57,493 nucleotides of DNA from Myxococcales bacterium (GTDB lineage Bacteria > Myxococcota > Myxococcia > Myxococcales > UBA5297), in the NCBI GenBank assembly GCA_031262165.1, contig JAISIF010000129.1, positions 1 through 57,493 on the forward strand, written 5' to 3'. This document shows, piece by piece, positions 1,656 to 30,680 of the stretch. How positions within the stretch are numbered: position 1 is the stretch's first letter; each line of letters begins with the position of its first letter. The notes under the pieces were generated by a model. It was not told the origin of the DNA. It did not search any database and worked only from the letters and a program-made list of their open reading frames with translations. The position numbers and the translations under genes are program-made.

Positions 1656-1684
1656 ACCTCGCGCGGCAGTAGCCAGATTTTCCC

Positions 1685-1720: not shown

Positions 1721-1871
1721 CTTTGCCTCGCCCAGCGCCTCTCCGCCTGCCAGCGCCTCGCCTTGCCACTGAATAAAAAAAGGACTCTGCCGTTTGAGGC
1801 GCGACTTTGCCTCCCATCCTCAAAACAGGCTGTCGCCAGAGCCCTGGCCCTTCTCGAAAGATCTCTCAACG

Positions 1872-3503: not shown

Positions 3504-3650
3504 CGCGAAACACGCCAAATCCACCTCCTCATCAAAGGGGAGGTGTTCCTCTAAACCCTCGCTCGTGGAGCCACGCCCTCTGGCCCTTTCAAAGGCAGAT
3601 GGGGAACGCCGCGCCCGTAGGTGAGGTTCGAAACACAGGTCATCACAGCC

Positions 3651-4676: not shown

Positions 4677-4839
4677 GCGCGGAGATCGAACGATCATCGA
4701 CGGGCGTTTTTCGCAGAGCCCCCTCCATGGCGTGGCCTGGCGATGGATGATCGACCCGAACGCAACGTTGGGCAGGCACAGGCGCCTGCCCCTTGAAAAG
4801 CAATCGCTCCCTGTTCCCTGCCCCAAGGTCTCCTCTTCC

Positions 4840-5724: not shown

Positions 5725-5730
5725 GACTTA

Positions 5731-5880
5731 GGACTTCTCCCTCAATTATCCCGTCGCCAAAGCTCGTCCGTGAAACGCCAGCCCTCGTTGCTTCGCGCTT
5801 CACTTCCGTCTGGAAGCTCGCGCCTCGTCTGGCATTCCCCGTCCTTCGCGGTGCACAGGTCCTCATCGAGAGATAAGTCC
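5731..5880 (+). repeat. MITE family A, copy 2
   Basis: GGACTTCTCCCTCAAT...ATCGAGAGATAAGTCC; shared core TCGTTGCTTCGCxCTTCACTTCCGTCTGGA; lies just after the metF stop. Confidence 0.9.
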
Positions 5881-5928
5881 ATAAAACCACCGCCCCGGCC
5901 TTCCAGAGCCACCTCAAAGGAGCCCCGC

Positions 5929-9723: not shown

Positions 9724-9937
9724 ATTCTCACCGCCCTCTGCCCCTGCGGACCACCTCCCACCCAGCGAGGGGGATGTCGGCAAAGAGGACAGGAGGAGAG
9801 CGCCCCGAATTTGTCCGCCCTGTCGATGGACGGCCCATGCCGGAAGAAAAATGGAGCGCAGCGCCAACGCCGTCTCCTCTCGTGACTTCCGACGACCAAC
9901 AGATCCAGATCACTCACTTCGTATCGAGGGCTCCGCC

Positions 9938-11200
9938 ATGATTCCCAGCCTCTCCGTTCAGCGCGTCCAACGCTTCGGCCATTACTGGCTGCTGTGCCAA
10001 CTGGGCTACTGCGACATGGGCGAGATGTGGCTGGCCAGCCCGGACGACGGGCTCGACGCCAACGAGCTGTGCGTCATCAAAAAGCCGCAGCCCGACACGT
10101 TCCACGAACCCGACTCGATCGCGCGCTTCCTCGACGAGATCCGCGTGACGGATCTCCTGGATCACCCGAACATCTCAAAGGTGCTCGATGCCGGAGAGAT
10201 CGACGGCGAGCCCTTCCTCGCGCTCGACTTCGTCGAGGGAAAGAGCCTCTCGGATATCAACGATCGGCTGCGCGAGACAGGGCAGCTCTTCCCGCTGCCC
10301 CTCACGATCCACCTCGGCATCCGCGTCTGTGACGCGCTCGCCTATGCCCACCGCCTCGTGGGGCCGGGCAACCGACCGCTCCAGCTCGTCCATCGCAACA
10401 TCTGCCCGGACAACCTGCTCGTTGCCTACTCGGGCGGCATCTCGCTCATCGACTTCGGCATGGCCTACTCCACGCTGAGGGAAGCGCAGACGCTGCTGGG
10501 CAAGCGACCCAGTCAGCAGACGGCCTACCGGAGCCTGGAGCACGCTCGGAACAAGGCGGTGGACGCGCGCTCGGACATCTTCTCGCTGGGCGCCGTGCTG
10601 TGGGAGCTGGCCGCTGGCGTCAGCCCCCAGCAGACGAGGGAGGAGATGGAGCTCTGGCTCAAGTCGGGTCGGCCACGCTTCGTCTCGCCGTCGAACCACC
10701 GCAAGGGTGTGCCGCAACAGCTCGATTACGTGCTCATGCGCGCGCTGAACAACGACCCGCGCGATCGCCAGCAAAAGGCCACCGAGCTCCAGCGCGAGCT
10801 CCAGGCCATCCTCGACCGCCTCGCCCCCGGCTATGAGCAGATCGCCGACAGCGAGATGTCGCAGTTCATGCACGATCTCTTCGGCACCAGCTTCATCGAG
10901 GAGCGGAAGCGGACGATGCACGCGCTCAAGTCGGCGCAGGCCGAGGCGAGCGTCGGCGCGGACGACGCCGACGGCGAGCCCTTCGACGATGACGATGTCG
11001 ATGATGATGTCGATGACGCTCGCGGTGATGGCGAAGGCGAGCTCCCGCCATCGCAGTCGCCGCCCTTGTCGAAGCGCGCTGGGACGGCCGTCGCCGTGAT
11101 CGCGGGCAACCGAGGCCTCGTCGTCGGTTTCGTGCTCGCGTTCTTCCTGAGCCTCCTCGTCGCCGCGGCGCTCTATCTGATCTGGACGCTTCTGAGCTGA
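9938..11200 (+). CDS. Membrane-anchored Ser/Thr kinase-like protein, probable pseudokinase
   Basis: VIKK, HPNI, DFG and DIFSLG present; catalytic loop reads HRNICPDN; acidic linker; C-terminal TM helix. Confidence 0.85.
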   Translation: MIPSLSVQRVQRFGHYWLLCQLGYCDMGEMWLASPDDGLDANELCVIKKPQPDTFHEPDSIARFLDEIRVTDLLDHPNISKVLDAGEIDGEPFLALDFVEGKSLSDINDRLRETGQLFPLPLTIHLGIRVCDALAYAHRLVGPGNRPLQLVHRNICPDNLLVAYSGGISLIDFGMAYSTLREAQTLLGKRPSQQTAYRSLEHARNKAVDARSDIFSLGAVLWELAAGVSPQQTREEMELWLKSGRPRFVSPSNHRKGVPQQLDYVLMRALNNDPRDRQQKATELQRELQAILDRLAPGYEQIADSEMSQFMHDLFGTSFIEERKRTMHALKSAQAEASVGADDADGEPFDDDDVDDDVDDARGDGEGELPPSQSPPLSKRAGTAVAVIAGNRGLVVGFVLAFFLSLLVAAALYLIWTLLS

Positions 11201-11382
11201 GCTGGGCTGGGCTGGGCCGATCCAAACGGCTCGCCTCGCTCGTTCGCTCGCCCAGACTAGGCCCGCCTGGACACACAGCGCCGCCTCTCCCCCAGGAGGC
11301 GCTCTTGTCATTCGTCCGCCTGCTCCACACCTCTTGAGCACCACCTGGTGACCTCACTCAGGAAAGGAGCAGGAGGCAGGAC

Positions 11383-11622
11383 ATGGACAAAAAATACGGC
11401 GGCAAGAAGGACGAGCAAAACGAGAAGGGCGAGATGAGTGTGCGCGAGGCTGGCAAGCGCGGCGGCGAAGCCCGGAAGGAAGAGCTCGGCCACGAGGGCT
11501 ACGTCGAGCTCGGCCACATGGGCGGTCAGCGTGTGCGTGAGCTGGTCGAAGAAGGGCGCGAGGCCGAGGCCGAGGAAGAGAAGCGTCACGCCAACGACAA
11601 GAACCGCTCACCCAAGAAGTGA
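11383..11622 (+). CDS. GsiB/Em(LEA1)-like general stress hydrophilin, copy 1
   Basis: MSVREAGKRGGEARKEELGHEGYVELGHMGG motif; AGGAGG RBS. Confidence 0.85.
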   Translation: MDKKYGGKKDEQNEKGEMSVREAGKRGGEARKEELGHEGYVELGHMGGQRVRELVEEGREAEAEEEKRHANDKNRSPKK

Positions 11623-11696
11623 GCGCGCGCCTCACGGTCGCAGTCACGACAGACGAGGCGCCACACCTCACACGGGAAAGGAACAGGAGGCAGGAC

Positions 11697-11930
11697 ATGG
11701 ACAAAAAGTACGGCGGCAAGAAGGACGAGAAGATCGAGAAGGGTGAGATGAGCGTGCGCGAGGCTGGCAAACGCGGCGGCGAAGCCCGGAAGGAAGAGCT
11801 CGGCCACGAGGGCTACGTCGAGCTCGGCCACATGGGCGGTCAGCGCGTGCGCGAGCTGGTCGAAGAGGGGCGCGAGGCCGAAGAAGAGAAGCGCCACGCC
11901 GACGACAAAAGCCGCTCACCCAAGAAGTGA
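11697..11930 (+). CDS. GsiB/Em(LEA1)-like general stress hydrophilin, copy 2
   Basis: Near-identical to copy 1, with the same AGGAGGCAGGACATG start context. Confidence 0.85.
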   Translation: MDKKYGGKKDEKIEKGEMSVREAGKRGGEARKEELGHEGYVELGHMGGQRVRELVEEGREAEEEKRHADDKSRSPKK

Positions 11931-12034
11931 GCGCGCGCGCCGCGGTCACATCAGGCGGCGCTCCACCCCTCCCCCACGCCCCATGACCTCATGGGGACGA
12001 CGAAACGACGCATCAAAGGAGAAAGGCGCAGGAC

Positions 12035-12280
12035 ATGGACCACAAGAGTGACGGCAAGAAGGGTGAGATGCCCGAGAAGGGCGAGATGAGCGTGCGCGAG
12101 GCTGGCAAGCGAGGTGGCGAGGCGCGCAAGGAAGAGCTCGGCCACGAGGGCTACGTCGAGCTCGGTCACATGGGCGGCTCCAAGGGCGGCCAGCGTGTGC
12201 GCGAACTGATCGAAGAAGGCCGCGAGGCCGAGGAAGAGAAACGTCACGCCGAGGACAAGAGCCACTCATCCAAGAAGTGA
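12035..12280 (+). CDS. GsiB/Em(LEA1)-like general stress hydrophilin, copy 3
   Basis: Paralog carrying an extra SKGG (HMGGSKGGQRV). Confidence 0.85.
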   Translation: MDHKSDGKKGEMPEKGEMSVREAGKRGGEARKEELGHEGYVELGHMGGSKGGQRVRELIEEGREAEEEKRHAEDKSHSSKK

Positions 12281-12320
12281 GCGCGCCTCGTCGCGAGGCT
12301 TCACGAATCACGAGCAGATC

Positions 12321-12380
12321 ATCCCGGGAGTCGCCGTTTCTCCGATGTGAATCGGCAGAGGGGCTCCCGGGATTTTTTTT
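12321..12380 (+). terminator. Probable terminator after the stress gene triplet
   Basis: ATCCCGGGAG...CTCCCGGGAT stem followed by a T run. Confidence 0.6.
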
Positions 12381-12616
12381 GCCTCGATCGAGCGCCCCTC
12401 ATCCCGTCGCCTCGTGTCCCGTCGCCTCGTGTCGGCCCTCTCCCACGAGTGGGAGAGGGGGAGTTTTGAAGGTCGAACTGGATCGGATGTGACGAACCCA
12501 GCACGGACCAGTTGCAGTCTTTCGTTTTCCGAACAAAGTGCGCGCCCTTTTTCGAGTGAGCGCTCGGCCTTGGCCCAAAGCGCCGCTCTCCCTTCCCCTC
12601 AAGGAGCCAACGCTTC

Positions 12617-13081
12617 ATGGCCACGCCGAAAACGCCCTCGACGACATCATCGTCATCCCCCGCCTCCCCATCCGCCTCTGCCTCTGCCTCCGACGCCCAA
12701 GAGACGGCGCGCACCCTGGCCCGCCTCGGCCTCGACAAAAAAGCGAGCGACGTGCTCGTGCTCGATGTCCGCGAACTGGCCTCCTACACCGACTTCTTCG
12801 TCCTCATGACCGCCGAGAGCGATCCCCAGCTCTTCGCCATCGCCGATCACATGGAGATGACACTGAAGGCCCAGGGCAGGCGCCCCATGAGCATCGAGGG
12901 GCTGCGCGCTGGCCAGTGGGTGCTGCTCGATTACGGCGACGTCGTCGTCCACGTCTTCCATGCGGACGCGCGCGCCTTCTACGACATCGAGGGCCTGTGG
13001 GCCGACGCGCACCGCGAGGAGATCAGCGACGAGCCGCCCGCCTCCACCCACACCACCACCGCGCCCACCGGAAACGCCTGA
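12617..13081 (+). CDS. rsfS: Ribosome silencing factor (Iojap family)
   Basis: [30 protein letters not shown] and [10 protein letters not shown] motifs. Confidence 0.95.
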
Positions 13082-13101
13082 CTGACACGAGGTCCGCCAC
13101 C

Positions 13102-14349
13102 ATGAACCGCCAGTCCCTGAGAGCCTCCGATCCAGAAATTTTTGACATCATTGCCTGTGAGACGCGTCGCCAGGAGGAAGGCCTCGAGCTCATCGCCAGC
13201 GAAAACTTCGTCTCCAAGGCCGTGCTCGAGGCGCTCGGATCGACGCTCACGAACAAATACGCCGAGGGCTATCCGACCCGCCGCTACTACGGCGGCTGCG
13301 CACAGGTGGACCGCGCCGAGACGCTCGCCATCGACCGCGTGAAAAAGCTCTTCGGCGCTGAGCACGCCAACGTCCAGCCGCACTCGGGATCGCAGGCCAA
13401 CATGGCCGCCTACATGGCGCTGCTCACGCCCGGCGCACGCATCCTCACGCTCGACCTCAACTCGGGCGGGCACCTGACCCACGGCGCCAAGTTCAACTTC
13501 TCGGGCAAGCTCTACGAGGTCTTCCACTACGGGCTCGACCCGAAGACCGAGCGCATTGATTTCGATCGGCTCGAAGCCCTCGCCCAAGAGCATAGGCCCG
13601 CACTCATCGTGGCTGGGGCAAGCGCCTATCCGCGCACCATCGACTTTGCGCGCTTCCGTGCCATCGCCGACAGCGTGGGCGCAGCGCTCATGGTGGACAT
13701 GGCGCACATCGCCGGACTCGTCGCGGCTGGCCTGCACCCATCGCCGGTGCCCGTGGCCGACATCGTCACCTCGACGACGCACAAGACGCTGCGTGGCCCG
13801 CGCGGGGGCCTCATCCTCAGCAAGGCCGAGTTGGCCAAGAAGGTCGATTCGCAGATCTTCCCGGGCATTCAGGGCGGTCCGCTCGAGCACGTCATCGCGG
13901 CCAAGGCCGTCTCCTTCCACGAGGCGCTCTCCGACGACTTCGTCGCCTACCAGCGGCAAGTCCTCGCGAACGCGCAGGCACTCGCAGAGGCGCTCATCGC
14001 ACGCGGCCTGCGCCTGTGTTCGGGCGGCACCGACAACCACCTCGTGCTCGTCGATCTTCGATCCAAGTCGATCACGGGCAAGGCAGCCGAGGAAGCGCTG
14101 GGCCTGGCCGACATCACGGTCAACAAGAACATGATCCCGTTCGACCCAGAGAAGCCGACCGTCACCTCGGGCATCCGCCTGGGCACCCCGGCGCTCACCA
14201 CGCGCGGCCTCGGAACGGACGAGATGGCGCACGTCGCCAACTGGATCGTCGATGTGCTGGAGAATCCTGAGGACGAGGCGGTTCGCACAAAGGTCAGAGG
14301 ACAAATCAAAGAATTGTGCGAACGATTTCCTTTGTATCGGGATGAATGA
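13102..14349 (+). CDS. glyA: Serine hydroxymethyltransferase
   Basis: [39 protein letters not shown] and SGIRLGTPA motifs. Confidence 0.98.
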
Positions 14350-14426
14350 ATCATAAGGCAATTCACAAAGGGTTTTGATGAATGGCCATTGATAAAACGA
14401 GTTGGAACACAACAAGAGGAGCCTGA

Positions 14427-15590
14427 ATGGCAGTATACAAACACATAGATTCCGCCCTCATTCACGGTGGAATCTATGGGGACGAGACGACGGGAGCGGT
14501 GAATACGCCTATTTACCAAACATCCACCTATATGCAGGAGGGTTTGGGAAAACATAAAGGCTATGAATATTCGCGCACTGGCAACCCGACACGGGCCGCA
14601 CTCGAGGCGCTCATCGCCGAACTCGAGGGAGGGCGAGCGGGGTTCGCGTTTGCCTCTGGCATGGCAGCGATTTCAGCGGTCATCGGGCTTTTCAAAAGCG
14701 GTGACACGCTCATCATCTCGAGCAATGTCTATGGTGGGACTTTTCGTATTTTAGACAAGGTATTCGGGCATTTCGGTATTCGCTGCATCATCGCAGACAC
14801 CGCCGATTTGAATTCCCTGGAATCCAAAATAACGAAAGACGTCAAAGCCATTCTCGTCGAGTGTCCCGCCAATCCGCTGCTCACCATTACAGATATTGCC
14901 GCCGTGGCGCGCCTTGCCAAACAGCATGGCATCTATTCCATCGTCGACAACACCTTCATGACGCCCTACCTGCAGCGCCCCATCGAGCTCGGTGCGGACA
15001 TCGTCATCCACAGCGCGACCAAATATCTCGGCGGCCACAGCGATTTGATTGCAGGGCTGGTCGTCGTCAATTCCCAAGAGCTCGCCGAGCAAATTCATTT
15101 CATACAAAACGCGACCGGAGGCATTTTACAGCCGTTCGACTCATTCCTCCTGATCCGCAGCATCAAAACCCTCGGCATCCGAATGGAGCGCCATGTCGAA
15201 AACGCGAGCACCGTCGCGAATTTCCTGAATTCAAACGAGAGCATCAAAAAGATATATTATCCCGGATTACCTGATTGTCAGGGATATGAGATCAATCAGC
15301 GTCAGGCCAAGAATGGCGGCGCGATGCTCTCCTTCGAATTGACCGAAGGCCATGACATCCGAGTGTTTTTTAGCGCGTTGCGTCTCATCGCTCTGGCAGA
15401 GAGTTTGGGTGGCGTCGAATCCCTCGTCTGTCATCCCGCGAGTATGACCCATGCGTCCATTCCGAAAGAAATCCGAGACAGGGTGGGCATTACAGACGGC
15501 TTGATACGCTTATCGGTCGGAATCGAAAATATCAGCGATATTTTGGACGACCTCAACCAAGCGATTGCAAAAAGCACGGAGACAAATTGA
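14427..15590 (+). CDS. mccB: Cystathionine gamma-lyase (MccB/YrhB type)
   Basis: YEYSRTGNPTR, FASGMAAI, VDNTF, HSATKYLGGHSD and AESLGGVESL motifs; lower GC than flanks; adjacent to a CBS/CysK-type gene. Confidence 0.85.
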   Translation: MAVYKHIDSALIHGGIYGDETTGAVNTPIYQTSTYMQEGLGKHKGYEYSRTGNPTRAALEALIAELEGGRAGFAFASGMAAISAVIGLFKSGDTLIISSNVYGGTFRILDKVFGHFGIRCIIADTADLNSLESKITKDVKAILVECPANPLLTITDIAAVARLAKQHGIYSIVDNTFMTPYLQRPIELGADIVIHSATKYLGGHSDLIAGLVVVNSQELAEQIHFIQNATGGILQPFDSFLLIRSIKTLGIRMERHVENASTVANFLNSNESIKKIYYPGLPDCQGYEINQRQAKNGGAMLSFELTEGHDIRVFFSALRLIALAESLGGVESLVCHPASMTHASIPKEIRDRVGITDGLIRLSVGIENISDILDDLNQAIAKSTETN

Positions 15591-16513
15591 TGGCTTACTA
15601 TGATTCAATGCAGGGGTTGATTGGAAACACGCCCTTGGTCAAACTAAACAATATGGATATTCCGCAAGGCGTGAATGTCTTTGCCAAACTGGAGTATTAC
15701 AATCCCGCTGGCAGCGTCAAAGACCGCATCGGCAAATACATGCTGGATGACGCAGAGCGCAAAGGCCTTCTGAAGCCCGGCGGCGCCATCATCGACGCGA
15801 CGGCAGGGAATACAGGGCTCGGGATTGCCTTTGCGGCGTTGGGGCGCGGCTACCGAATTATCTTTATCGTGCCGACGAAATTCTCCATCGAGAAGCAGAC
15901 ATTGCTGCGCGCATTGGGCGCCGAAGTCATCAATACCCCATTAGAAGAGGGGATGCTCGGCGCGTCCAAAAAAGCGGATGAATTGCGCGCACAAATCCCG
16001 GGTGCAGTCACCTTGGATCAATTCAAAAACATGAATAACCCGCTGGCGCACTATGAACAGACAGGTCCCGAGATCTACAGGGACTTAAACGGAGAAATTG
16101 ATTACGTCGTCGCTGGTGCAGGCAGCGGCGGGACGTTCTCCGGTATTCTCAAGTATCTGAAAGAACAAAACCCTGCCATTCAAGGTATTTTGGCAGACCC
16201 TGTTGGTTCCACGATGGGCGGCGGTGAACACGCGAATTACGAGATAGAGGGGATCGGCAATGATTTTATCGCCGACACAATGGACATGTCCCTCGTCGAT
16301 AAAGTCATCAAAATCACCGACCAGGAGGCGTTTGCCACGACCCGTCTATTGACCAGACGCGAAGGGATTATCGTCGGAACGTCATCTGGAGGTGTCATGG
16401 CCGCCGTCCAAAAGTTCGCTGCGACCATCGACAAGGGAAATATCGTCACCGTTTTCCCAGACAGAGGCGATCGGTATTTCAGCAAAGGGATATATTCAAA
16501 AGAAAACTCATGA
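15590..16513 (+). CDS. mccA: PLP-dependent cysteine synthase family protein, probable O-acetylserine-dependent cystathionine beta-synthase
   Basis: IGNTPLV, KLEYYNPAGSVKDR, TAGNTG, GAGSGGT, IEGIG and FPDRGDRY motifs; TGATG overlap with mccB. Confidence 0.8.
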   Translation: MAYYDSMQGLIGNTPLVKLNNMDIPQGVNVFAKLEYYNPAGSVKDRIGKYMLDDAERKGLLKPGGAIIDATAGNTGLGIAFAALGRGYRIIFIVPTKFSIEKQTLLRALGAEVINTPLEEGMLGASKKADELRAQIPGAVTLDQFKNMNNPLAHYEQTGPEIYRDLNGEIDYVVAGAGSGGTFSGILKYLKEQNPAIQGILADPVGSTMGGGEHANYEIEGIGNDFIADTMDMSLVDKVIKITDQEAFATTRLLTRREGIIVGTSSGGVMAAVQKFAATIDKGNIVTVFPDRGDRYFSKGIYSKENS

Positions 16514-16555
16514 TGTGTCATCATGAATCAGTCGAGAAAGAGGCATCAAAAATAA

Positions 16556-17197
16556 ATGGGACGTGAGTTTCTAGAAGTTTTTACGGATTGGGCAGACAGC
16601 TATGATGGCTTCATCGAAGGGGCTGCCGAAGAATACAGTAGAGTATTTCAGCGCTATGATGAAATCCTTGATGAAGTCGTCAATCGAAGCGGTCAAACCA
16701 TTATTGAATTCGGAGTTGGGACCGGCAACCTCACCAAAAAGTTTTTAGACAAAGGGAAAAAAGTCTTTCCCATCGAGCCCTCGGTTGAAATGAGGTCCAT
16801 CGCTTCGACGAAACTAGGCGAGTTGGTGACCATTCATGATGGAGATTTGCTGGATTTTCCAAAGCCGGAAATTTCCATCGATACGATTGCCCATTCATTT
16901 GTCTTCCATCATTTGACCGACCCTGAAAAACGTGAAGCGCTGAGGCTTTACCATGCTCTATTGGCACCGGGCGGAAAAATGGTCTACGCCGATACTATGT
17001 TCCTGACACAGGAAGCATTCGATGAAGAGATCAGGAAAGCGGAAGCGGCGAATTATCTTAATTTAAGCGCTGATCTCAAACGGGAATATTATCCGCTGAT
17101 CCCAAATATCCAGCCCTTCTTTGTTGAGCAGGGGTTCGACGTTTCTTTCAAGCAATACAATGATTTTGTATGGCTCGTCGAAGCCATCAAAAAATAA
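16556..17197 (+). CDS. Class I SAM-dependent methyltransferase (YrrT-like)
   Basis: MGREFLEVFxxWAxxYD start, IEFGVGTGNLT motif I and FHHLTDxEK, resembling Bacillus YrrT. Confidence 0.8.
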   Translation: MGREFLEVFTDWADSYDGFIEGAAEEYSRVFQRYDEILDEVVNRSGQTIIEFGVGTGNLTKKFLDKGKKVFPIEPSVEMRSIASTKLGELVTIHDGDLLDFPKPEISIDTIAHSFVFHHLTDPEKREALRLYHALLAPGGKMVYADTMFLTQEAFDEEIRKAEAANYLNLSADLKREYYPLIPNIQPFFVEQGFDVSFKQYNDFVWLVEAIKK

Positions 17198-17229
17198 CGG
17201 AATACCTCAGCTCAGAATTACCCACCTAA

Positions 17230-17405
17230 CCAGACCAAGACGCCCCTCGATCGCCTCTCACTGTCGAGGCCATCCCCGATACCAGCTGCTCTCTGGGAAC
17301 GAGGGGTTTTCCTTTGGAACGACATTGATTCAAATGTCAGACGCAAACATGGCTCAGCAAGGAGACTTCATCCAGGACGGCGTGAGAACCCAGCTCCTTG
17401 ACCGA
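17230..17405 (+). pseudogene. Remnant of the hydG upstream region and first ~24 codons
   Basis: Aligns with 21767-22010, with an internal deletion; ATG 17334 gives MSDANMAQQGDFIQDGVRTQLLDR versus HydG MSDASVAQTGDFIQDGVIAQVLDR. Confidence 0.9.
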
Positions 17406-17554
17406 CGCGCGGCCTCGGAACGGACGAGATGGCGCACGTCGCCAACTGGATCGTCGATGTGCTGGAGAATCCTGAGGACGAGGCGGTTCGCGGTCGGGTC
17501 AAAGGACAGATCAGGGAGCTGACGGAGCGGTTTCCGCTGTATCGAGAGAAATGA
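17405..17554 (+). repeat. Second copy of the glyA 3' end (150 bp)
   Basis: 17405-17491 is identical to 14200-14286; the remainder encodes GRVKGQIRELTERFPLYREK* versus [20 protein letters not shown]. Confidence 0.95.
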
Positions 17555-17593
17555 AAATGATTTCCTAGAACTCTTCGATATTTACGGAGGGAC

Positions 17594-18157
17594 ATGAAGA
17601 TGAAACTTCATTCTGTTAACTCAGTTCTCATCTTCCTCTTTGTTGTTATCGGCATACTCGTATTTCCAGAAATGCCTTTAGCGGAATCTTCTCAATGTCC
17701 TCAAAAAAGCATGGAAGAAGTGTCCATGGAAATAGGCCCTGAAGGAGGGACGATTCATCTTTCTTTTTCAACACTGACGATCCCCGAAGGTGCGTTAGAC
17801 TCAAAAGTGCTCATCAAGTTTTTGCGATACGGTGTTTCGAAAAATCCTGATAGAAATGACTATTACGAAATCCTGCCTTTTGGGATTAAATTTCATCGCT
17901 CTGTGACACTATCCGTCGTCACGGGTGACATCATCTACGAAGGCAGTGAATTAAAAACAATCGATAAAGTATATCCAGAAGATTACAGGTTTTGCCTTAT
18001 CAGAGACGACGGCACCTTTATCTTTTGGCGACTCCCAACACAGGTCTCCTCTCAGCTTGGAGTCTTTATTGGCGTGCTGAAAGAAACCAATAGATATGGG
18101 ATTCGTAAAGCAGATCTTCAAAATCAGAGTTTAGGAAAGTGTTTTGGGGAGAATTAG
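17594..18157 (+). CDS. Secreted ZU5-like domain protein
   Basis: Signal peptide; IGPEGGTI...LTIPEGAL motif; AT-rich; GGAGG RBS; paralogous to the next gene. Confidence 0.7.
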   Translation: MKMKLHSVNSVLIFLFVVIGILVFPEMPLAESSQCPQKSMEEVSMEIGPEGGTIHLSFSTLTIPEGALDSKVLIKFLRYGVSKNPDRNDYYEILPFGIKFHRSVTLSVVTGDIIYEGSELKTIDKVYPEDYRFCLIRDDGTFIFWRLPTQVSSQLGVFIGVLKETNRYGIRKADLQNQSLGKCFGEN

Positions 18158-18204
18158 GTTTTTGGAGAAGAATTTTGGCCATTTTTTGAGCAAAGGACAC
18201 TCAG

Positions 18205-19444
18205 ATGAAGCATATATCTACGATCTTGATGCTTTGGCTTCTTTTGACCACCGCTTGTTCCTCTAAGACAGAGGATAGCTCAGATACCGAACAGAGCCTG
18301 ATGGAAGAAAAATCAATGGAAATTGGTCCATCAGGAGGGAGTATCGAGCTTTCTTTTACAACTCTTACTATTCCTGAGGGCGCACTCGACAAGAATGTTT
18401 CTATAAAAGTATCACGATATGGAAAATCAGAAGACCCAAACAAGGAAGACTATTATGAATTATCTCCTTCCGGATTAGAATTCAATAAGTCTATAACTAT
18501 TTCAATCGCAACGAGTGTTCTCTTAGAACCTGTTGAACTTGTGTATCCAAAGCATTATCGACTGGGTTATCTTAATGATGGAGATTTTTCTCCTATTCCA
18601 ACGCAAAACATTTCACAATTTGGAATTCTAACGGGTGTTCTACGGCATTTTTTCTACGGTTGCCGCTCGAGATCCCGGAAACGGTGCTCAGGGTCCTTCA
18701 GAAGAAAAATGCTTTCCTTCAAAATATAAAATTTCAAATGATTGCCCAGCAGGGCTCTGTCATCGAAATTTTTTCAATTATCCATGTGAAACTTGTTTGA
18801 TTCGAACCCCTCAATGTGGAGAGTTCTCTCAAGAGCTGTTTTCTTGTTGTAAAAGCTGTGAAGATCCGACGATTACAATGATAGATATGAAATGTTCACA
18901 AGACCAACTTGAGGACTCCGAGGAAATTATTTGTGATCAAAAGCTCATTCCTTTTTCTGGAAAATGTTCAAACAACGGCCCTATCGGTGGTTCTTTTGCT
19001 GAAACAAGGGTTTTGTGTGATCCCACTTCCATTTCCAAGATTACGCAAACGGAAGCTGATGGTCAGATTTGCGTCCAAATCGTTAATGAGTCAGTGAATG
19101 TTTCTTCAAAAACCGAATTAACTATGCCCGACTGGAAAAATAAGCCTGAAAAATGTGCCAGCATGTGGGATAATTTTATTTGTAAATTGCGTGAACATGA
19201 AAAAGAGCATCATAAAATGGGAGTTCAAACATGTTCAGATATGGGTTCAGCTATTCAGGCGATAGTTGTTGAATCTTGTGCTTCAACACATGAAGCTGCA
19301 CAGAAGCAAGCGTTGAGTGACTATAGACGAGAGTTTCAGAATGCAATTGGATTATCAATGCGAATAGGTCAGGATATTCAAGATGAATTTGATTCGGACA
19401 CGAATCATGGAAATCTGATGCTCGATTGTTCATGCGCCAATTGA
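18205..19444 (+). pseudogene. Frameshifted lipoprotein: ZU5-like domain + Cys-rich linker + DUF922-like HExxH domain
   Basis: Lipobox LTTAC; IGPSGGSI...LTIPEGAL; removing one T from the T6 run at 18648-18653 joins ORFs 18205 and 18635 into 412 aa reading RHFSTVAARDPG; MPDW...WDNFICKLREHEKEH near the C-terminus. Confidence 0.75.
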
Positions 19445-19500
19445 TATGGTGAACGCGCCTATTTACCAAGCAGCCCTGCCTCTGGAGACCTGAACCGGCT

Positions 19501-20361
19501 CTACTTGGACCAGTCGAGGCGCCGCTGCGCCGGAAAGCTCACCTCTTCCCGCCGGAGTTGGCCGCCGATCACGGCGCTCACCTCGTAGGCGCGCGCCTCG
19601 GCTGGCAACACCACGCGCGGCCCCTTGCCGACCATCTTCCCGTCCACGAAGAGCGGCACGTCCGCTGGCACCAGGACGACGAGGCAACACTCGTCGGCGA
19701 GCTGGCTGAGCACCTGCGGCGCGACGTCGATGCGAATGCCGAAGTTGACGTTGTTGGCACTAGGGATCCCGGCGGTCGTGATGCCGACGACTCGCCCCAG
19801 CCGATCGACGATGGGGCCGCCAGAGGCGCCAGGGTTGAGCGGGATCTGGGTCTGGAAAACCGGCCGCTCAGCGCCGATCGGGTAGATGTTCGTCACCATC
19901 CCCGTGGAGAAGGTCCAGATGCCGCCGAGCCCATGGCCCACTGCGGCGACCCAGCTCCCGACCCTGAGCCCCTGCATCTGAAGCGCGAGCGGCGTTGGAG
20001 ATTTGGCCGCCACCTGCACCAAGGCCAGGTCCACGTCTTTCTGCCCGCGTTCGACCACCGCCCCTGCCAACCGCTTCCCATCGTGCAGCACGACCTCCAC
20101 GCTGGCACTGTCGCCCACGACGTGGGCGTTGGTGAGCACCAACCCATCGGCGTTCACGAAGAAGCCAGAGCCGAACTTGCCCTTGGCCGAGATGAGCACC
20201 ACCGACGGTGCGATCCGATCGAAGAGCGCCTGCTGAAAGCGCTCGATCGCCTGAATGGGATCAGCGGCCTCGGCTGATTCTGCCGCCCGTGCAGCGCCGG
20301 TCGAGAGCACTGCGGCAAGCGGGAGAAAGGCCAGGGCGCGGAACAGCGATCGCTTCGGCAT
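19501..20361 (-). CDS. Secreted trypsin-like (S1C) serine protease without PDZ, with a PEGA-like tail
   Basis: GSGF, TNAHVV, DVDLA and LNPGASGGP catalytic triad motifs; LFVDGK in the C-terminal segment. Confidence 0.9.
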   Translation of the reverse strand: MPKRSLFRALAFLPLAAVLSTGAARAAESAEAADPIQAIERFQQALFDRIAPSVVLISAKGKFGSGFFVNADGLVLTNAHVVGDSASVEVVLHDGKRLAGAVVERGQKDVDLALVQVAAKSPTPLALQMQGLRVGSWVAAVGHGLGGIWTFSTGMVTNIYPIGAERPVFQTQIPLNPGASGGPIVDRLGRVVGITTAGIPSANNVNFGIRIDVAPQVLSQLADECCLVVLVPADVPLFVDGKMVGKGPRVVLPAEARAYEVSAVIGGQLRREEVSFPAQRRLDWSK

Positions 20362-21464
20362 CAGAACGTCCCTGAGAGAAGCGCCCCACCACCGCCCGGG
20401 CCAGCCGAGAAGCTCAGGTCGATCGTGACGTTGTCCGGGAGCCCGAGCTTTTGGCGCAGCTTCTTGTTGTGCTCATCGGCGAGCCGACGCGCCTCGGCAG
20501 CATCAATGGGAGCCATTCGCAAAAAGAGGCCTGTCATGAGCGCTGCCGTGCCCACTGCCGTGATGACGCCGCCAGCGATGAGAAAGTTGGTTTTTCTTTT
20601 ACTCTGCTTGGCATCCCAATCTTCCCACTCCTGCGAGCCCCAATCTTCCGGCTCTTTGCCATCGCTGCCGAACAGAGGAAGCAGCATGACGACCAGGCCA
20701 CCGGCCATGGCCACGCTGCCGCCCGCCATCAGGCCAATTTTGGCGCCCCGTCTGGTCTTGTAGCTGCTGACGAGATCGGCGCGCCCGATCTCTTCATAGA
20801 AGGTGGCACCCTTCAGCGGCTCTTTGAACTTACCCTTGACCGGGATGACCCCGGACGAGGCAGAGACCACCTGGCCGTATTGATTGACGCCGATTGCCGT
20901 CCACCCTTGGAAGCCAATGAAGTTCTTCTCGTATTCGTCGAGGGCGCTCGTTCCGGTCTGCTGAATCTCCGAGATGGCCTGCATCGCGGCCGGGGGCGCG
21001 CCGTCACTCGGAGCCGCTGCCCCCTCTTTGGCCGCCAAGGCCACCCCGCGCTTCACGGTGAAGGCATCCAGCGGTTCGCCCTTCTTCGAGTAGCGCGTCA
21101 CCATCGCGGTCGGCGGGGTGCTGGAGGCACCAGGGAAGATGCGCACGATGACGATCGAGTCAGCGGGAAATTGGGCACCCTTGGCCGCGATGGCGGCATC
21201 GTCGAGTTCGGCGACCGAACCGAGCGCTTCGCCAGTGAGGACCGTGACCCCCGCCTCGCGCGCGGCTTCGGCGAACGCTGCCGTGGCCGAAGCCAATTCC
21301 TCCGATGGCATCCCGCCCGCGACGAGCAGCACGGTGGTGTCGGCGCGCCCGAGATAGCTGGTCATCGCCGAAGGCGAAAAGGTCTCTGGCCATGTCTCGG
21401 CCTGCGCGGTGAAGGGGAGGGCAAACGCGAGAAGAAGTGTGGCTCGATGCAATAAAGCACTCAT
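20361..21464 (-). CDS. Hypothetical exported protein with two C-terminal hydrophobic helices
   Basis: GGAGG RBS, signal peptide ending AQA, ends ...LLSGTF; stop overlaps the protease start. Confidence 0.75.
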   Translation of the reverse strand: MSALLHRATLLLAFALPFTAQAETWPETFSPSAMTSYLGRADTTVLLVAGGMPSEELASATAAFAEAAREAGVTVLTGEALGSVAELDDAAIAAKGAQFPADSIVIVRIFPGASSTPPTAMVTRYSKKGEPLDAFTVKRGVALAAKEGAAAPSDGAPPAAMQAISEIQQTGTSALDEYEKNFIGFQGWTAIGVNQYGQVVSASSGVIPVKGKFKEPLKGATFYEEIGRADLVSSYKTRRGAKIGLMAGGSVAMAGGLVVMLLPLFGSDGKEPEDWGSQEWEDWDAKQSKRKTNFLIAGGVITAVGTAALMTGLFLRMAPIDAAEARRLADEHNKKLRQKLGLPDNVTIDLSFSAGPGGGGALLSGTF

Positions 21465-21938
21465 GAATCTTACCTCCTGATGCTGGTTTGGAGCTGCTGA
21501 CGATTCCTCAAAAACCTCCCCCTCCAACCGCCTCTGAATCGGGAAGATCCATCGTCATTGTGAAAGAAGTTTCTCGTCCTCCAGATGGTGTGGAGCACAC
21601 CTCATCGTTCCTCGGAATCGACGGCCTCTCGCCCTGCTCTTTTTGGCAAGCAAGGGGATAAATCCCCTTGCCAAGAAATTCTGGAAGCGGATGCGGTAAT
21701 GACCAACATCAGAGATGCAAACGATACGGACACACAACGCCCTTTCCTTTTTTTGAATAGACGCATCCAGACCAAGATGCCCCTCGATCGCCTCTCACTG
21801 TCGAGGCCATCCTCGATGCCAGCTGCTCTCTGGGGACGAGGGGCTTTCCGTTGGCTGGACCGCGCAACCCCATCAGGCGCGGCGCATCAGAGCGCTCCTT
21901 CCCCGCAGCAGACTCCAAAAACAACGAGGTCGATTCAA

Positions 21939-23345
21939 ATGTCAGACGCAAGCGTGGCTCAGACAGGTGACTTCATCCAGGACGGCGTGATCGCCCAGGT
22001 CCTCGACCGAGGCGCCGCCGCTTCCCCCACCGAGATCCGCGAGATCCTGGCCAAGGCGCTCGAGCTCAAAGGGCTGTCGCTGTCGGATGTGGCCGCGCTC
22101 TCCAAACTGCGCGATCCCGAGCTTTGCCACGCGCTGTTCGAGGCAGCTCGCGCGGTCAAGGAGAGGATCTATGGCACGCGCATGGTTCTCTTCGCGCCGC
22201 TCTACATCTCCAATCTCTGCAACAACGAGTGCCTCTACTGCGCGTTCCGCGCGAGCAACCGCGAACTGGAGCGTCGGGCGCTCTCCCGCGACGACATCAC
22301 GCGCGAGGTCGAAGAGCTCGTGGATCAGGGGCACAAGCGCGTCCTGATGGTGGCCGGTGAGCGCTACCCGCAGGAGGGCTTCCGCTACGTGCTCGACGCG
22401 ATCGACGCCATCTACGCGGTGAAGCGCCCCAAGGGAGAGATCCGCCGCGTCAACGTCAACGTGGCGCCGCTGTCCGTCGATGAGTTCCGCGAGCTCAAGG
22501 CAGCGCGCATCGGCACCTTCCAGCTCTTCCAGGAGACCTACCACCGCGGAGTCTATGCGGAGGTCCACCGCGGCGGCCCCAAGCGCAATTACGACTTCCG
22601 CGTGACCGCCATGGACCGCGCCATGGCGGCTGGGATCGACGACGTGGGCATTGGCCCGCTTCTCGGCCTGGCCGACTGGCGCTTCGAAATTCTCGCGTTG
22701 CTCCAGCACATCCACCACCTCGAAGAGCGCTTCGGCGTTGGCCCGCACACCATCAGCATCCCGCGGATCGAGCCCGCGTGCGGCTCGGACATGGCGACGC
22801 GCCCGCCCAACGAAGTGAGCGACGACGACTTCCGCAAGATCGTCGCGATCCTGCGGCTGGCCGTGCCCTACACGGGCCTCATCCTCTCGACGCGCGAGAG
22901 CGCCGCGATGCGCCACGAGCTCATCGGCCTCGGCATCTCGCAGGTCTCGGCCGGCAGCCGGACGAACCCGGGCGGCTACACCGAGCGCGAGGACGAGCAG
23001 GCCGCCCAGTTCCACCTCGGCGACCACCGCTCACTCGAAGAGGTGGTCGTGGATCTGATGTCCATGGGCCACATCCCGTCGTTCTGCACGGGCTGCTACC
23101 GCATGGGCCGAACGGGCAAGGACTTCATGGACCTCGCGCGGCCCGGCGACATTCGACGCCACTGCGATCCCAACGGCCTGTCCACATTCCTCGAATACCT
23201 GATCGACTTTGCCTCTCCCGAGACGCGGCAGATGGGCGAGCGGCTCATCCAAGACAAGATCGAGCGCATGGCGCCCATCCCGCGCGCCGTGTCCCAGAAG
23301 CTCGTCGAGCGCGTCCGTTCGGGCCAGCGCGACGCTTACGTGTGA
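21939..23345 (+). CDS. hydG: [FeFe]-hydrogenase H-cluster radical SAM maturase
   Basis: FAPLYISNLCNNECLYC (CxxxCxxC), LFQETYH, SAGSRTNPGGY and the C-terminal SFCTGCYR...HCDPN auxiliary-cluster motif that separates HydG from ThiH. Confidence 0.93.
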   Translation: MSDASVAQTGDFIQDGVIAQVLDRGAAASPTEIREILAKALELKGLSLSDVAALSKLRDPELCHALFEAARAVKERIYGTRMVLFAPLYISNLCNNECLYCAFRASNRELERRALSRDDITREVEELVDQGHKRVLMVAGERYPQEGFRYVLDAIDAIYAVKRPKGEIRRVNVNVAPLSVDEFRELKAARIGTFQLFQETYHRGVYAEVHRGGPKRNYDFRVTAMDRAMAAGIDDVGIGPLLGLADWRFEILALLQHIHHLEERFGVGPHTISIPRIEPACGSDMATRPPNEVSDDDFRKIVAILRLAVPYTGLILSTRESAAMRHELIGLGISQVSAGSRTNPGGYTEREDEQAAQFHLGDHRSLEEVVVDLMSMGHIPSFCTGCYRMGRTGKDFMDLARPGDIRRHCDPNGLSTFLEYLIDFASPETRQMGERLIQDKIERMAPIPRAVSQKLVERVRSGQRDAYV

Positions 23346-23697
23346 GAGAGAACGACAAAGGAGATCACATTCAAATTAGTATTATAGAACGCCACAACGA
23401 CGCCAAAAAGAACATTGAATTCGAAATAAAATAATAAAGATTCCGCGTCCCACTTCGCGGGAATCAATCATTTGCAGCTTCGCTGTAAAATTATGCCGCC
23501 TTTCAGCGGTGTTTCGCTTCTCTTCGCAATTTGCAGCATTTTCGAGAAAGAATGAGATTGTTCATTTTATTTGCTAGACGGGCGCAGCACGCTGCGCCCC
23601 TACAAAACCTTCGATGGATAGCGTCAATTATTTTTGAGGACACTGTAAATCCAATAGGACCAAACTGCTTGAGAGAAAAATAGAATTTATAAAAGAA

Positions 23698-24157
23698 TTG
23701 GATGTCGTCGCGGTTCGCAATGACGAGAATGTTGGGAATATCGTCTATTGTGAATCCGAAATCATAGATTCAGACAGAGAAGACGTCGTTTTGACCTTGG
23801 GCCTTCTCAGCGTTTTGCCTGAATGTCAGAAAAAAAGGATTGGGGGAGGGGAGGGCGGCGATAGAGCTGGCACGGACGATGGGGATCGGGCGGTGCTCAT
23901 CTATGGCGTTCCAGCGTATTATCAGCGCGTTGGCTTCAAGCCTTCCAAAGAATACAGGACAACAAACGAGGATTTGCAAAGTCCCGCCGCGCTGCTGGCG
24001 CTCGAATCATATTCGAATGCATTGAGTGGAATCAAAGGCGTGTTCGATGAAGGAAAGCATTATCAAGTCGATGAGCTTGGATTGCTTGAATCCAAAAAAG
24101 GCTTCCCTCCAAAAGAAAAGCGCTCCACGAAAATACAGGATCGATTCAATGAGTCAG
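23698..24157 (+). pseudogene. Degraded GNAT acetyltransferase
   Basis: VGNIVY, LSVLPECQKKRIG, LIYGVPAYYQRVGF; N-terminus missing; segment AIELARTMG lies in another frame; 3' end runs into a MITE. Confidence 0.7.
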
Positions 24158-24163
24158 GACTTA

Positions 24164-24277
24164 GGGATTATCCATCGATTATCCCGTCGCCCCGCTCGTC
24201 GGTGAAATGCCAGCCTTCGTTGCTTCGCTCTTCACTTCGTCCTTCGCGTTGCTCGGCCCTCATTGAGGGATAAATCC
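24164..24277 (+). repeat. MITE family A, copy 3 (internally deleted)
   Basis: TTA|GGGATTATCC...GGATAAATCC|TTA, with a matching 3-bp TTA on each side. Confidence 0.9.
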
Positions 24278-24383
24278 TTAGTGGAGATGTTTTTGTGAAA
24301 GCAGGGATGATTATCAATCGCCCGTGCGAAATCATCTGAAGACCGCCATTAGAATTGGTGATTTCGGGATCAAAGGAAAAGGG

Positions 24384-24890
24384 TCACCGCATGGGCTTCA
24401 TGTAGGCGATCTGCGTCACCTCGCGGTCGTCGGACTCGGCGGCGAGCGTCGTCACGCGGCCATCCGCGGCGCGCAGGCGGCGGCACAGCTCGCGGTTGAG
24501 GTTCTGGAGCACCAGGACGTAGGCCTTCACGTCCGCCTGATAGAGCCGATACAGATCCATGTTCGTCAGTTCGAACAGGGTGACATCGGTCTCGGCTTGG
24601 GCCGTCGCTGGCCTCGGCTGCATCTCGATGAGCGTCGTCTCGCCGAAGAAGTCGCCTCGGCGCAGTCGCACGAGGCGCACCTGCTGACCGCTGACCCCAG
24701 AGCGGACCATCAGGACCTCACCCGAGTGGATGAGATACATGGATGCCCCGCGATCGCCCTCGAAGAAGATGGTCGATCTCTGTCGGAAGGTGTGCTGCTT
24801 GAGCATTCCGCACAGCCGCTCGAGGGCTGGCTCGTCGAGGCCTCCGAAGAAGGGCGTTTTCTCCAAAAATTCTTTGAGTTCTCTCTGCAT
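24384..24890 (-). CDS. Stand-alone cyclic nucleotide-binding domain protein
   Basis: IFFEGDRGASMYLIHSGEV, GDFFGE and PRPATAQA motifs; no HTH. Confidence 0.9.
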   Translation of the reverse strand: MQRELKEFLEKTPFFGGLDEPALERLCGMLKQHTFRQRSTIFFEGDRGASMYLIHSGEVLMVRSGVSGQQVRLVRLRRGDFFGETTLIEMQPRPATAQAETDVTLFELTNMDLYRLYQADVKAYVLVLQNLNRELCRRLRAADGRVTTLAAESDDREVTQIAYMKPMR

Positions 24891-25335: not shown

Positions 25336-26277
25336 ATGTCACCGAAACGATCCCTCAGATGGCTCTCCCTTGCCTGTGCGCTCGGATTTTTCCTGAGTGC
25401 GGGCGCCGATGAGTGCCTGGCCGCAGCCCGAACCAAGGCGCGCCACCGTATCGCCAAGGTCATCCCGACCTATGCCTATCTCGTCCCGGACAGCAGCCAG
25501 TTCATCGACGCTGATCCCGCCTTTCTCAAGAACGCCCTGGCCAAGGCCAAGCGGCGCCGAGGCGTCAAGCGCGGCGAGATCATCGACGACAAGGAGATCC
25601 GCCTGGAGATCGATCCCAAGACCTTCCAGACCGAGACCGTGATCCAGGATCTCGAGGGACTGCGCGTCGCGATGCGCCCGCCCTACAAGGGAATCGAGCT
25701 GCGCGTGGTCGATGGTGCGAGCTTCCCGCCGCGCAGCGAGATCAACGACGATGGGATGCTCGTCGTCGAGCTCAGCACGCAGCTCAAAGAGGCCATCAAC
25801 GAGGCTGTCCACTTCAACCTCCCGCCGAGGATGAAGTGCGTCGGCAAACTCGACTCGCCCAAGGCCAACGACGCGACGCTGCTGCGCTTCGAGAAAGAGA
25901 AGCTCTCCCCGGCCAAGATGATCCCCTTCATGAGTGTCGCGGACTTCGACGGCGACAAGCGTCCCGACCTGTTCCTCAGGCTCAGGGGCCTGCCCGAGAT
26001 GATCGTCTTCAACCAGGGCAATGGCTTCAATGTGGTGCCGCTGCGAGCGCCGCCGACGGAGCTGTCCACGATCCCGCGCTGCAGCCAGGATCCGCTCCAA
26101 TACGTCCGCGCCGTGCCCAACAAGCAGGTGAGGTGTCTCTCGGCGGAGAAGCGCCCCAAGAAACACAAGGGTGACGGCTTCGAGCTGATCAACCTCAACG
26201 TCAGCAACCAGCTCCTCATGTGGGACGGCTCCAAGATCGTCTCGTGTGAGCCGCTCGGTGAGGCCGTGATCCCCTGA
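25336..26277 (+). CDS. Secreted hypothetical protein with an FG-GAP/VCBS-like motif
   Basis: Signal peptide; ADFDGDKRPDL motif; GAGG RBS. Confidence 0.75.
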   Translation: MSPKRSLRWLSLACALGFFLSAGADECLAAARTKARHRIAKVIPTYAYLVPDSSQFIDADPAFLKNALAKAKRRRGVKRGEIIDDKEIRLEIDPKTFQTETVIQDLEGLRVAMRPPYKGIELRVVDGASFPPRSEINDDGMLVVELSTQLKEAINEAVHFNLPPRMKCVGKLDSPKANDATLLRFEKEKLSPAKMIPFMSVADFDGDKRPDLFLRLRGLPEMIVFNQGNGFNVVPLRAPPTELSTIPRCSQDPLQYVRAVPNKQVRCLSAEKRPKKHKGDGFELINLNVSNQLLMWDGSKIVSCEPLGEAVIP

Positions 26278-26453
26278 CATCCCTCTCCCGCAAGCGGGCG
26301 AGGGAATTCTTGGAAACCGGTTTGGAACGAATTGGATGAGGCCATCCTCATTCGCTGCCCTCTCCCGAAAAAAGGGAGAGGGCGGTCGCGAGGCGCCATG
26401 AGAGGGGCTCCGAATCCGGCTCAGGCGTCACCTCCTCTCAGGAGCCTCTCGAG

Positions 26454-30562: not shown

Positions 30563-30680
30563 CTGGGCGCCTCGGTGCCTCACCTCATCCAGCGCCCTCT
30601 CCCCATCGCCTCGCGTTGGCCCTCTCCCGCGAGCGGGCGAGGAAAGAGAGCGAGGAGCGACGTCGAGGCGTGCTGTTCGG

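Follow-up and report, generated by a model that had tools for sequence, protein, structure and literature searches.

A hybrid hydG-glyA remnant between two blocks of foreign genes at a core-gene junction in a Myxococcales genome

The locus reported here lies between glyA (serine hydroxymethyltransferase, SHMT) and hydG ([FeFe]-hydrogenase maturase) in a 57,493-nt stretch of DNA from a Myxococcales bacterium (contig JAISIF010000129.1 of assembly GCA_031262165.1; this whole stretch is called the window), and the closest described systems are of three kinds. Homology-facilitated illegitimate recombination (HFIR) is defined, in the part of its literature drawn on here, by one homologous anchor and one illegitimate end (PMC3240628). 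In the displacement arrays of Rhs toxins and of type VI secretion system (T6SS) effector-immunity pairs, a new gene end arriving with its cargo shifts the old end downstream, and the portion of the source used here proposes HFIR for this process (PMC5361080). Hotspots between core genes that are free of mobile genetic elements (MGEs) diversify, according to the relevant excerpts of the proposal of Oliveira et al. 2017, by homologous recombination in the flanking core genes (PMC5635113).

In the window, foreign genes in two blocks stand between the two housekeeping genes in the order R-tail1-block1-leader'-hydG' joined to R-tail2-block2-leader-hydG, where R is a perfect repeat within the end of glyA, and leader' and hydG' are a diverged copy of the hydG leader and of the start of hydG. 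This architecture, the empty site in two congeneric genomes, the composition and affinities that mark the blocks as foreign, and the lack of a match to recombinase families were observed directly. The hybrid remnant suggests, as far as a sequence pattern can, that it is the scar of one version of the interval stacked onto another and not replacing it, and the simplest account would be that the resident version was joined by another that had diverged earlier. We consider the chances somewhat better than even that the locus is an integrase-free hotspot between core genes into which DNA was integrated additively, via homologous exchange in the glyA end and one microhomology joint. Evidence for the growth of integrase-free hotspots by host recombination is mostly statistical. 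The present locus, found in one metagenome-assembled genome (MAG), keeps the scar, both parental gene ends, the joint, and an empty site in sister species, which makes the type of event directly readable.

Layout of the glyA-hydG interval

Forty related genomes, including two of the same genus (G001 and G002), were compared with the window. The two genes are adjacent in both congeners, being separated by 258 nt in G001 and 253 nt in G002 against 7589 nt here, and everything between the glyA stop codon and the hydG leader is therefore the insert. The left flank was collinear with G001 over 1149-14337, indicating that the contig is native up to glyA, and hydG was 80-81% identical to that of G002. 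Having glyA next to hydG characterises this genus: in six other family genomes that possess both genes, the two lie on different contigs, and glyA was found upstream of hydG in none of the 58 metagenome hydG loci with at least 1.5 kb of upstream sequence. The metagenome scan for HydG, in which 80 loci were kept, gave a best identity of 68% at the amino acid (aa) level and no close relative.

The borders of the two blocks consist of repeated gene ends. The 3' end of glyA occurs twice (14200-14350 and 17405-17555; 151 nt, 86% identity), and the region at the start of hydG is likewise repeated, with 88 nt of the leader at 17230-17317 matching 21767-21854 (93%) and 97 nt of the 3' part of the leader and the hydG start at 17318-17414 matching 21923-22019 (85%). 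The resident leader holds 68 nt (21855-21922) between its two matching parts that are missing from the remnant; over the 175 aligned nt, the two copies differed at 19 (89% identity). A search of the whole 3.02 Mb, 214-contig genome with 17230-17555 detected matches only at these places (E values of 2.6e-45, 1.8e-31, and 3.0e-24), and with all of them at or below 3.0e-24 the similarity is not a chance one. The same search found only two copies of R and no third one, so that no repeat lies at the far end of block 2. The ends of the blocks coincide, since each of the foreign blocks stops where the leader begins, at its first base (CCAGACCAAG; 17230 and 21767).

Base-by-base comparison of the glyA ends showed that the first 87 nt are identical, with R continuous with the glyA body, and that all 21 differences fall within the last 63 nt (67% identity). 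These 63 nt of the intact gene (14287-14349) form a foreign-looking, AT-rich tail. Both tails encode homologous C-termini of SHMT, one of them reading GRVKGQIRELTERFPLYREK up to the stop codon. The GC content was 0.40 in the tail that glyA carries at present and 0.56 in the displaced one, and GC at third codon positions (GC3) was 0.35 and 0.65, respectively, versus 0.86 for the glyA body. The tails differed from that of G002 at 28 and 27 of 63 nt, so that either may be the native one. An orphan 3' end of glyA is thus retained downstream of an intact glyA that has another tail, and its identity was also supported by tblastx against glyA of G001 and G002. Among 201 genomes of the order, a tally that includes the unpublished genome G161 (single match), a second match to the glyA C-terminal end was detected only in the present genome and in G158; in the 200 other genomes no orphan end beside glyA was seen, and such an end is not a recurrent feature of glyA.

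In the remnant, hydG' starts with an ATG at 17334, and its 24 codons run out of frame into the glyA piece and reach a stop after 62 codons. The joint links hydG codon 24 to glyA codon 368, with CTTGACCGA on the hydG side, where GACCGA stands directly before the joint, and CGCGCGGCC on the glyA side. The microhomology is GC-rich and imperfect: 7 of the 9 nt after the joint match hydG, and 4 of the 5 nt before it match glyA with one gap. No further similarity between hydG and glyA was found around the joint beyond this patch, which is typical of microhomology-guided illegitimate recombination. A preliminary description of this DNA had reported the identical 87-bp repeats, the diverged yet homologous tails with the AT-richer one now on glyA, and the composition of 17230-17554 as hydG leader plus 24 codons joined to a glyA tail; all of these were reproduced exactly, and its expectation that the interval varies among relatives was borne out by the empty site in both congeners. 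Its further view of the locus as a swappable, stackable slot found no such backing, as there is one stacking scar in one MAG and a second glyA C-terminal end in only 2 of the 201 genomes.

Table 1. Coordinates of the features at the glyA-hydG locus of the window
Feature	Position	Strand	Basis and remarks
glyA (serine hydroxymethyltransferase), intact	13099-14349	+	PF00464 550 bits; NF000586 640 bits, full length
Repeat R, copy 1	14200-14286	+	87 nt inside glyA, identical (87/87) to 17405-17491
Block 1a: cystathionine gamma-lyase/synthase family pyridoxal phosphate (PLP) enzyme	14427-15590	+	PF01053 500 bits; GC 0.525
Block 1a: cystathionine beta-synthase / cysteine synthase family PLP enzyme	15587-16513	+	PF00291 240 bits; GC 0.518
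Block 1b: S-adenosylmethionine (SAM)-dependent methyltransferase	16556-17197	+	PF13649 and others; GC 0.45
Remnant of hydG leader (17230-17333) and first 24 hydG codons (17334-17404)	17230-17404	+	Repeat comparison
Orphan glyA 3' end	17405-17554	+	Repeat R copy 2 (17405-17491) and displaced GC-richer tail with stop codon (17492-17554)
Block 2a: three genes, GC 0.40	17594-19444	+	Family scans
28-nt fragment of lyase-type gene (VNxPIYQ motif)	19448-19475	+	24/28 identical to 14498-14525
Block 2b: trypsin/HtrA-like serine protease	19501-20361	-	Family scans; GC 0.63-0.67
Block 2b: 388-aa protein, hydrophobic stretches, putative membrane/secreted by eye	20361-21527	-	GC 0.63-0.67
Resident hydG leader	21767-21938	+	Repeat comparison
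hydG ([FeFe]-hydrogenase maturase, radical SAM), intact	21939-23345	+	TIGR03955 521 bits (cutoff 312)

Origin of the hybrid joint

The divergence between the two sets of gene ends was very uneven, with 0/87 differences in R, 6/88 in the 5' part of the leader, 13/87 in the 3' part of the leader together with hydG', and 21/63 in the tails. At the rate of the remnant (19/175), the probability of finding no difference in the 87 nt of R is 4.5e-5. The leader/hydG piece therefore diverged before, or apart from, the duplication of R or its last homogenisation, and a single in-situ duplication followed by uniform decay was excluded by this unevenness.

In the additive integration that we favour, the incoming DNA would have comprised a glyA 3' end with the AT-rich tail, the lyase/synthase pair, the methyltransferase gene, and the hydG leader with the start of hydG. 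On the left side, it would have recombined homologously with the chromosome in the glyA end, where the 87-bp perfect repeat would mark the homology, and on the right side, hydG codon 24 would have been joined illegitimately to glyA codon 368 at the GC-rich microhomology patch. The joint may predate integration, in which case it closed a 3.2-kb circle and a single crossover brought this circle in, or it may have arisen while a linear fragment was being integrated, as in HFIR. The outcome would be a glyA kept intact with a new tail, an old tail and an older block pushed downstream, and a hydG that keeps its own leader, the recombination work presumably being done by host RecA-type functions. The circle closed by microhomology and the single crossover that had been proposed in the preliminary description agree with the topology of a 3205-bp circle (14287-17491) and with a joint lying in microhomology; a linear HFIR fragment fits equally well. 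As the linear and circular routes give the same product, a circle is not demonstrated by it, and it is by inference that we speak of the order of events, of either route, and of the nature of the donor.

Several observations weigh against the additive integration. When the 24 hydG codons were polarised against G001 and G002, six of their 10 differences were derived in the remnant and one in the resident gene, with three ambiguous, and most of the 10 were non-synonymous. This suggests that the remnant resembles the decay of a dead copy more than a functional donor gene, and that it has probably been non-functional for long. A donor whose R is identical over 87 nt while its tail differs by 33% and its leader/hydG piece by 11% would itself have to be a mosaic, or R would have to have been homogenised later by gene conversion. 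Classical HFIR usually deletes recipient DNA and does not duplicate 87 bp of it. Neither an allele with a single block nor a close relative was found in the collections searched. Two points come from the independent assembly described below: its glyA contig passes 14200 unbroken, and none of its contigs lies on 17272-17461, so that the hybrid joint is neither confirmed nor refuted by it.

The excess of derived, non-synonymous changes in hydG' (6:1:3) and the AT shift of the remnant (12 versus 4) would be expected for decay if the segment from glyA codon 368 to hydG codon 24 had been duplicated in tandem in situ by microhomology-mediated unequal exchange. The contents of one copy would later have been swapped with a foreign allele by double homologous recombination, the dead pieces would have decayed, and gene conversion would have kept R identical. 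The joint, with the end of the segment fused to its start, is exactly the product of such an exchange, and the 28-nt lyase fragment in block 2 suggests that both copies might once have held a lyase gene. This account is nevertheless an unlikely one. The divergence is very uneven, as noted above; the functional tail is the AT-rich one, so the GC-richer orphan cannot have decayed from it; and a swap confined to copy 1 requires that the right crossover fall either within the leader or in the final 6 nt of the remnant. At least three events would be needed, versus one or two for the additive model.

The joins were further compared with Logan contigs. The locus was held by run X1 only (0.95 of the sampled words), with next to none in X2 and X3 of the same study, and X1 may be the source sample. 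Within block 1, its contigs bridged R to tail 1 and the lyase gene (14257-16251) and the methyltransferase gene to leader' (16255-17271); within block 2, they bridged R to tail 2, block 2a, the lyase fragment, and the protease gene (17462-19926), and the protease pair to the leader (19901-21808); a further contig ran from the leader into hydG (21779-23190). Of the positions 14200, 17405, and 21770, across which the preliminary description had called for reads to be mapped, the Logan contigs run through the first and the last and leave 17405 uncovered. With 17272-17461 uncovered, the hybrid joint is the sole join without independent support. The Logan contigs break where 31-mers are shared. Their depths were 8.0 for glyA, 6.5 and 6.0 for block 1, 10.1 and 6.9 for block 2, and 6.7 for hydG. 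At position 17230, the first base of the leader homology, the contig of X1 has A and the MAG has C, a sign of some heterogeneity or of a consensus difference at the block border.

These data also bear on an artefact of assembly or population structure, in which block 1 would be a separate 3.2-kb circle, or the alternative blocks of two strains would have been threaded together via the shared words of 87 bp and 34 bp. Judged from the Logan contigs, the underlying de Bruijn graph has breaks at 14286, 17271, 17462, and 21808 and, without 17272-17461, would be a plain two-branch bubble; the coverage is low (6-10), and the A for C at 17230 points to some heterogeneity. We regard an artefact as distinctly improbable all the same. 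The 129 nt of 17276-17404 are unique and differ from the resident copy, so that reads containing them must exist, and hydG and glyA share no assembler-length word at the joint. The depths are not additive, with 6.0-6.5 plus 6.9-10.1 for the blocks versus 8.0 and 6.7 for the flanks, and as the flank depth is not the sum of both blocks, two co-assembled strain alleles are not supported. The genome bin lacks a second glyA or hydG contig, and a 3.2-kb circle would carry only two PLP enzymes and a methyltransferase, with no replication gene.

Genes of the insert and further observations

The interval holds at least four blocks of differing composition. Against 0.625 for the genome, the GC content was 0.40 for the new glyA tail, 0.52 for the lyase/synthase pair, 0.45 for the methyltransferase gene, 0.40 for block 2a, and 0.63-0.67 for block 2b. 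The lyase of block 1a scored 562 bits with NF005810, under the equivalog cutoff of 594. Block 2a encodes two paralogous small proteins, whose hydrophobic N-termini were read by eye as putative signal peptides, and a Cys-rich DUF922 protein. Four open reading frames (ORFs) of the interval had no family match or a match to a domain of unknown function (DUF) only. By exact look-up of 12 distinct proteins or ORFs of the window, 8 were found, each in a cluster with sequences of this organism only; no entry was found for the remaining four (glyA with its start at 13099, the ORF of the synthase family, the one of 388 aa, and both that cross the joint).

The 28-nt lyase fragment sits exactly at the switch in GC content from 0.40 to 0.65, between the 40%-GC genes and the protease pair. 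In 30 block shuffles, at most 21 of 28 positions matched. The fragment is likely a further scar of illegitimate recombination and hints that the older block may once have held a lyase gene. No other remnant was found between the two blocks.

Affinities of the genes pointed in different directions. In a scan of genome contigs, the nearest relatives of the lyase (77% aa identity) were from Bacillota (Clostridia-type) gut MAGs, and similar copies occurred in MAGs of Fibrobacter, Treponema, Thermoguttaceae, and methanogens. The synthase gene followed the lyase gene in 78 of the 80 foreign loci. None of these 80 loci had glyA or the methyltransferase gene within 6 kb of the lyase gene, and the donor arrangement was therefore not found. 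No orthologue of the methyltransferase was detected in 200 genomes of the order, which gave only three weak partial matches. The protease pair was found in neither congener, and matched at 66-79% DNA identity in other genomes of the family and order. The G001 genome has a lyase/synthase pair of its own (locus L167, contig C10, 386401-388471) at an unrelated locus, 70-72% identical in aa sequence to the pair of the window; this pair lies in a patch with 55% GC, and an ORF of 379 aa with about 50% GC comes after it. In G002 (89% complete), no such pair was found with these queries. The lyase/synthase pathway seems, from these comparisons, to have been acquired independently within the genus. The insert thus delivers a sulfur-amino-acid pathway that one congener has elsewhere and that was not found in the other.

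The preliminary description had spoken of two cargo blocks and had drawn the added segment from a relative. Two blocks do lie between glyA and hydG, each being a mosaic and not a single cargo. A donor that was simply a relative did not hold: the leader/hydG remnant shares 89% identity with its resident counterpart and the new tail only 67%, with a GC3 of 0.35, the lyase/synthase pair is 77% identical in aa sequence to that of Clostridia-type bacteria, and the methyltransferase lacks an orthologue in the order.

No ORF of the interval matched an integrase, transposase, phage, conjugation, or defence-island recombinase family in Pfam, NCBIfam, PHROGs, or PADLOC, in agreement with the earlier observation that integrases and transposases are lacking from the interval. 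No tRNA or tmRNA gene lies within 30 kb, so the locus is not a tRNA-targeting island. Site-specific integration was nevertheless weighed, because direct repeats flank block 1, and a new in-frame gene end has been supplied while the old one was displaced; in addition, copies of a 41-nt stretch from the pdxJ 5' end stand on both sides of a second integrase-free insert of the genome. The locus would then be the remnant of an integrase-less, cis-mobilisable element that targets the 3' end of glyA and brings a replacement tail, with the integrase acting in trans, comparable to elements that have entered fda at its 3' end or prfC at its 5' end, with tandem accretion. We hold this to be very unlikely, given that no integrase was matched in the interval, that no third copy of R stands at the far end of block 2, and that the cargo is metabolic with no mobilisation function. 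Moreover, block 1 ends on the right in a piece of chromosomal hydG, which an element with attachment (att) sites would carry only after aberrant excision.

The pdxJ insert is located on contig C102 of the same genome (locus L174), where 2.4 kb of DNA with 35-43% GC separate pdxJ from the neighbouring gene upstream. The insert codes for a DUF4062 protein of 495 aa and a DUF2442 protein, and the three ORFs of insert and neighbour matched no integrase family in Pfam. The flanking 41-nt direct repeat (4346-4386 and 6789-6829) contains the ribosome-binding site and the first 12 codons of pdxJ, with a single mismatch that destroys the ATG in the distal copy. The empty site in G002 measures about 220 nt. 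The pdxJ locus is possibly another case in which the copied end of a housekeeping gene borders an insert that lacks an integrase.

One could go further and take block 1 as a self-perpetuating, integrase-free 3.2-kb cassette that cycles between circle and chromosome by host homologous recombination across the glyA end. The joint of hydG' and glyA would then be the old closure point of the circle, which would account for a long-dead hydG piece (6 derived changes versus 1), every integration would restore the 87-bp arm to full identity, and the pdxJ end would be a second example. Such a cassette is a long shot that we would put near the bottom of the scale of plausibility.

The first 88 nt of the leader are the best-conserved part of the remnant (93%), and a stem formed by GCCCCTCG...CGAGGGG encloses two hairpins and is followed by a T-rich run. 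This region may be a cis-regulatory or terminator element. Folding was modest relative to shuffled sequences, with z values of -1.8 for the whole leader and -2.8 for the remnant copy. A riboswitch or small RNA was considered for the leader and rejected, as its folds only modestly beat the shuffles, no Rfam family matched, and it could not be aligned to the spacers of G001 and G002. An Rfam search of 12000-24500 at E<=1 returned only a spurious NRON match, and a scan for promoters and terminators gave nothing informative above shuffle expectation.

The downstream side of hydG is variable as well, synteny with both congeners stopping at the hydG stop codon. The DNA directly after it (23350-24300) is AT-rich (GC 0.43-0.52) and contains an ORF of no known family (23698-24273). 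Just past this AT-rich stretch lies one copy of a dispersed repeat of about 160 nt, which occurs in the window at 5723-5880, 24156-24238, 34102-34264, and 46033-46203; a related 396-nt query gave 292 BLAST hits genome-wide, with many same-contig pairs 80-90% identical. It looks like a miniature inverted-repeat transposable element (MITE) or a repetitive extragenic palindrome (REP). A 42-nt repeat with four copies in the window (12418-12459, 26263-26304, 30602-30643, and 51562-51603) ends in a GC-rich palindrome (CCCTCTCCCACGAGTGGGAGAGGG) and also looks REP-like. Upstream of glyA, a unit of about 310 nt with a strong AT skew occurs three times in tandem (11351-12286; 93% and 73% identity), and the window is here about 1.2 kb longer than G001 (10951-12692 versus 129836-130365 on contig C1 of G001).

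Comparison with known systems

Integron cassette arrays and clusters of attC sites lacking integron-integrases (CALIN) share with this locus the ordered addition of promoter-less gene blocks at one end, older ones being pushed back. Here, in contrast, the block borders are gene fragments, as judged by eye, and not imperfect palindromes of the attC type, and Rfam was negative. The leader is the only border sequence shared by the blocks, and no GTTRRRY core, the attC consensus, was seen in it by eye, with no attC model run. Tandem accretion of integrative and conjugative, integrative and mobilizable, or cis-mobilizable elements (ICE, IME, CIME) resembles the locus in that blocks are stacked, direct repeats are present, and the element restores the gene end, and differs in that no integrase match, third att copy, or conjugation/mobilisation gene was found here. 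The features that define arrays of site-specific elements are not present, there being no integrase match and no third repeat.

The Rhs, CdiA, and T6SS arrays are closer in form. As described in the portion of the source drawn on, they add a new 3' end with cargo, orphan the old end, keep the newest addition beside the constant part of the gene, and have no known integrase (PMC5361080), all as at the glyA locus. The constant gene is here, however, a housekeeping enzyme, and the exchanged tail consists of 20 codons of SHMT with no known variable function; the cargo is metabolic and secreted-protein genes, and there is one displacement only. With no toxin/immunity module, the locus is not a member of these toxin arrays. 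It shares with HFIR, so far as the relevant parts of the sources describe it, the homologous anchor (the glyA end), a joint at GC-rich imperfect microhomology, foreign DNA in between, and no dedicated recombinase (PMC3240628, PMC5361080). It differs in that the recipient has lost no DNA and has 87 bp duplicated, and in that the illegitimate end is a piece of the neighbouring core gene.

The locus probably belongs to the class of MGE-free hotspots between core genes. The core genes are adjacent in relatives, several transferred genes of mixed origin lie between them, and no integrase or transposase was matched, as in the hotspots characterised in the excerpts consulted (PMC5635113). The use of core-gene ends as recombination arms of integrase-free hotspots, which the slot of the preliminary description implied, is an already published idea, stated in those excerpts (PMC5635113). 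In their model, contents are replaced by double homologous recombination (PMC5635113), whereas DNA was here probably added via one non-homologous joint, in our comparison of three species. One-ended homologous recombination would thus be able to add an allele on top of an older one at a housekeeping locus, with both flanking genes left intact. The locus can serve as a worked natural example and as a warning for the curation of MAGs. The mechanism itself is already established, and what the glyA-hydG interval adds to the described systems is a clean natural scar of addition rather than replacement.

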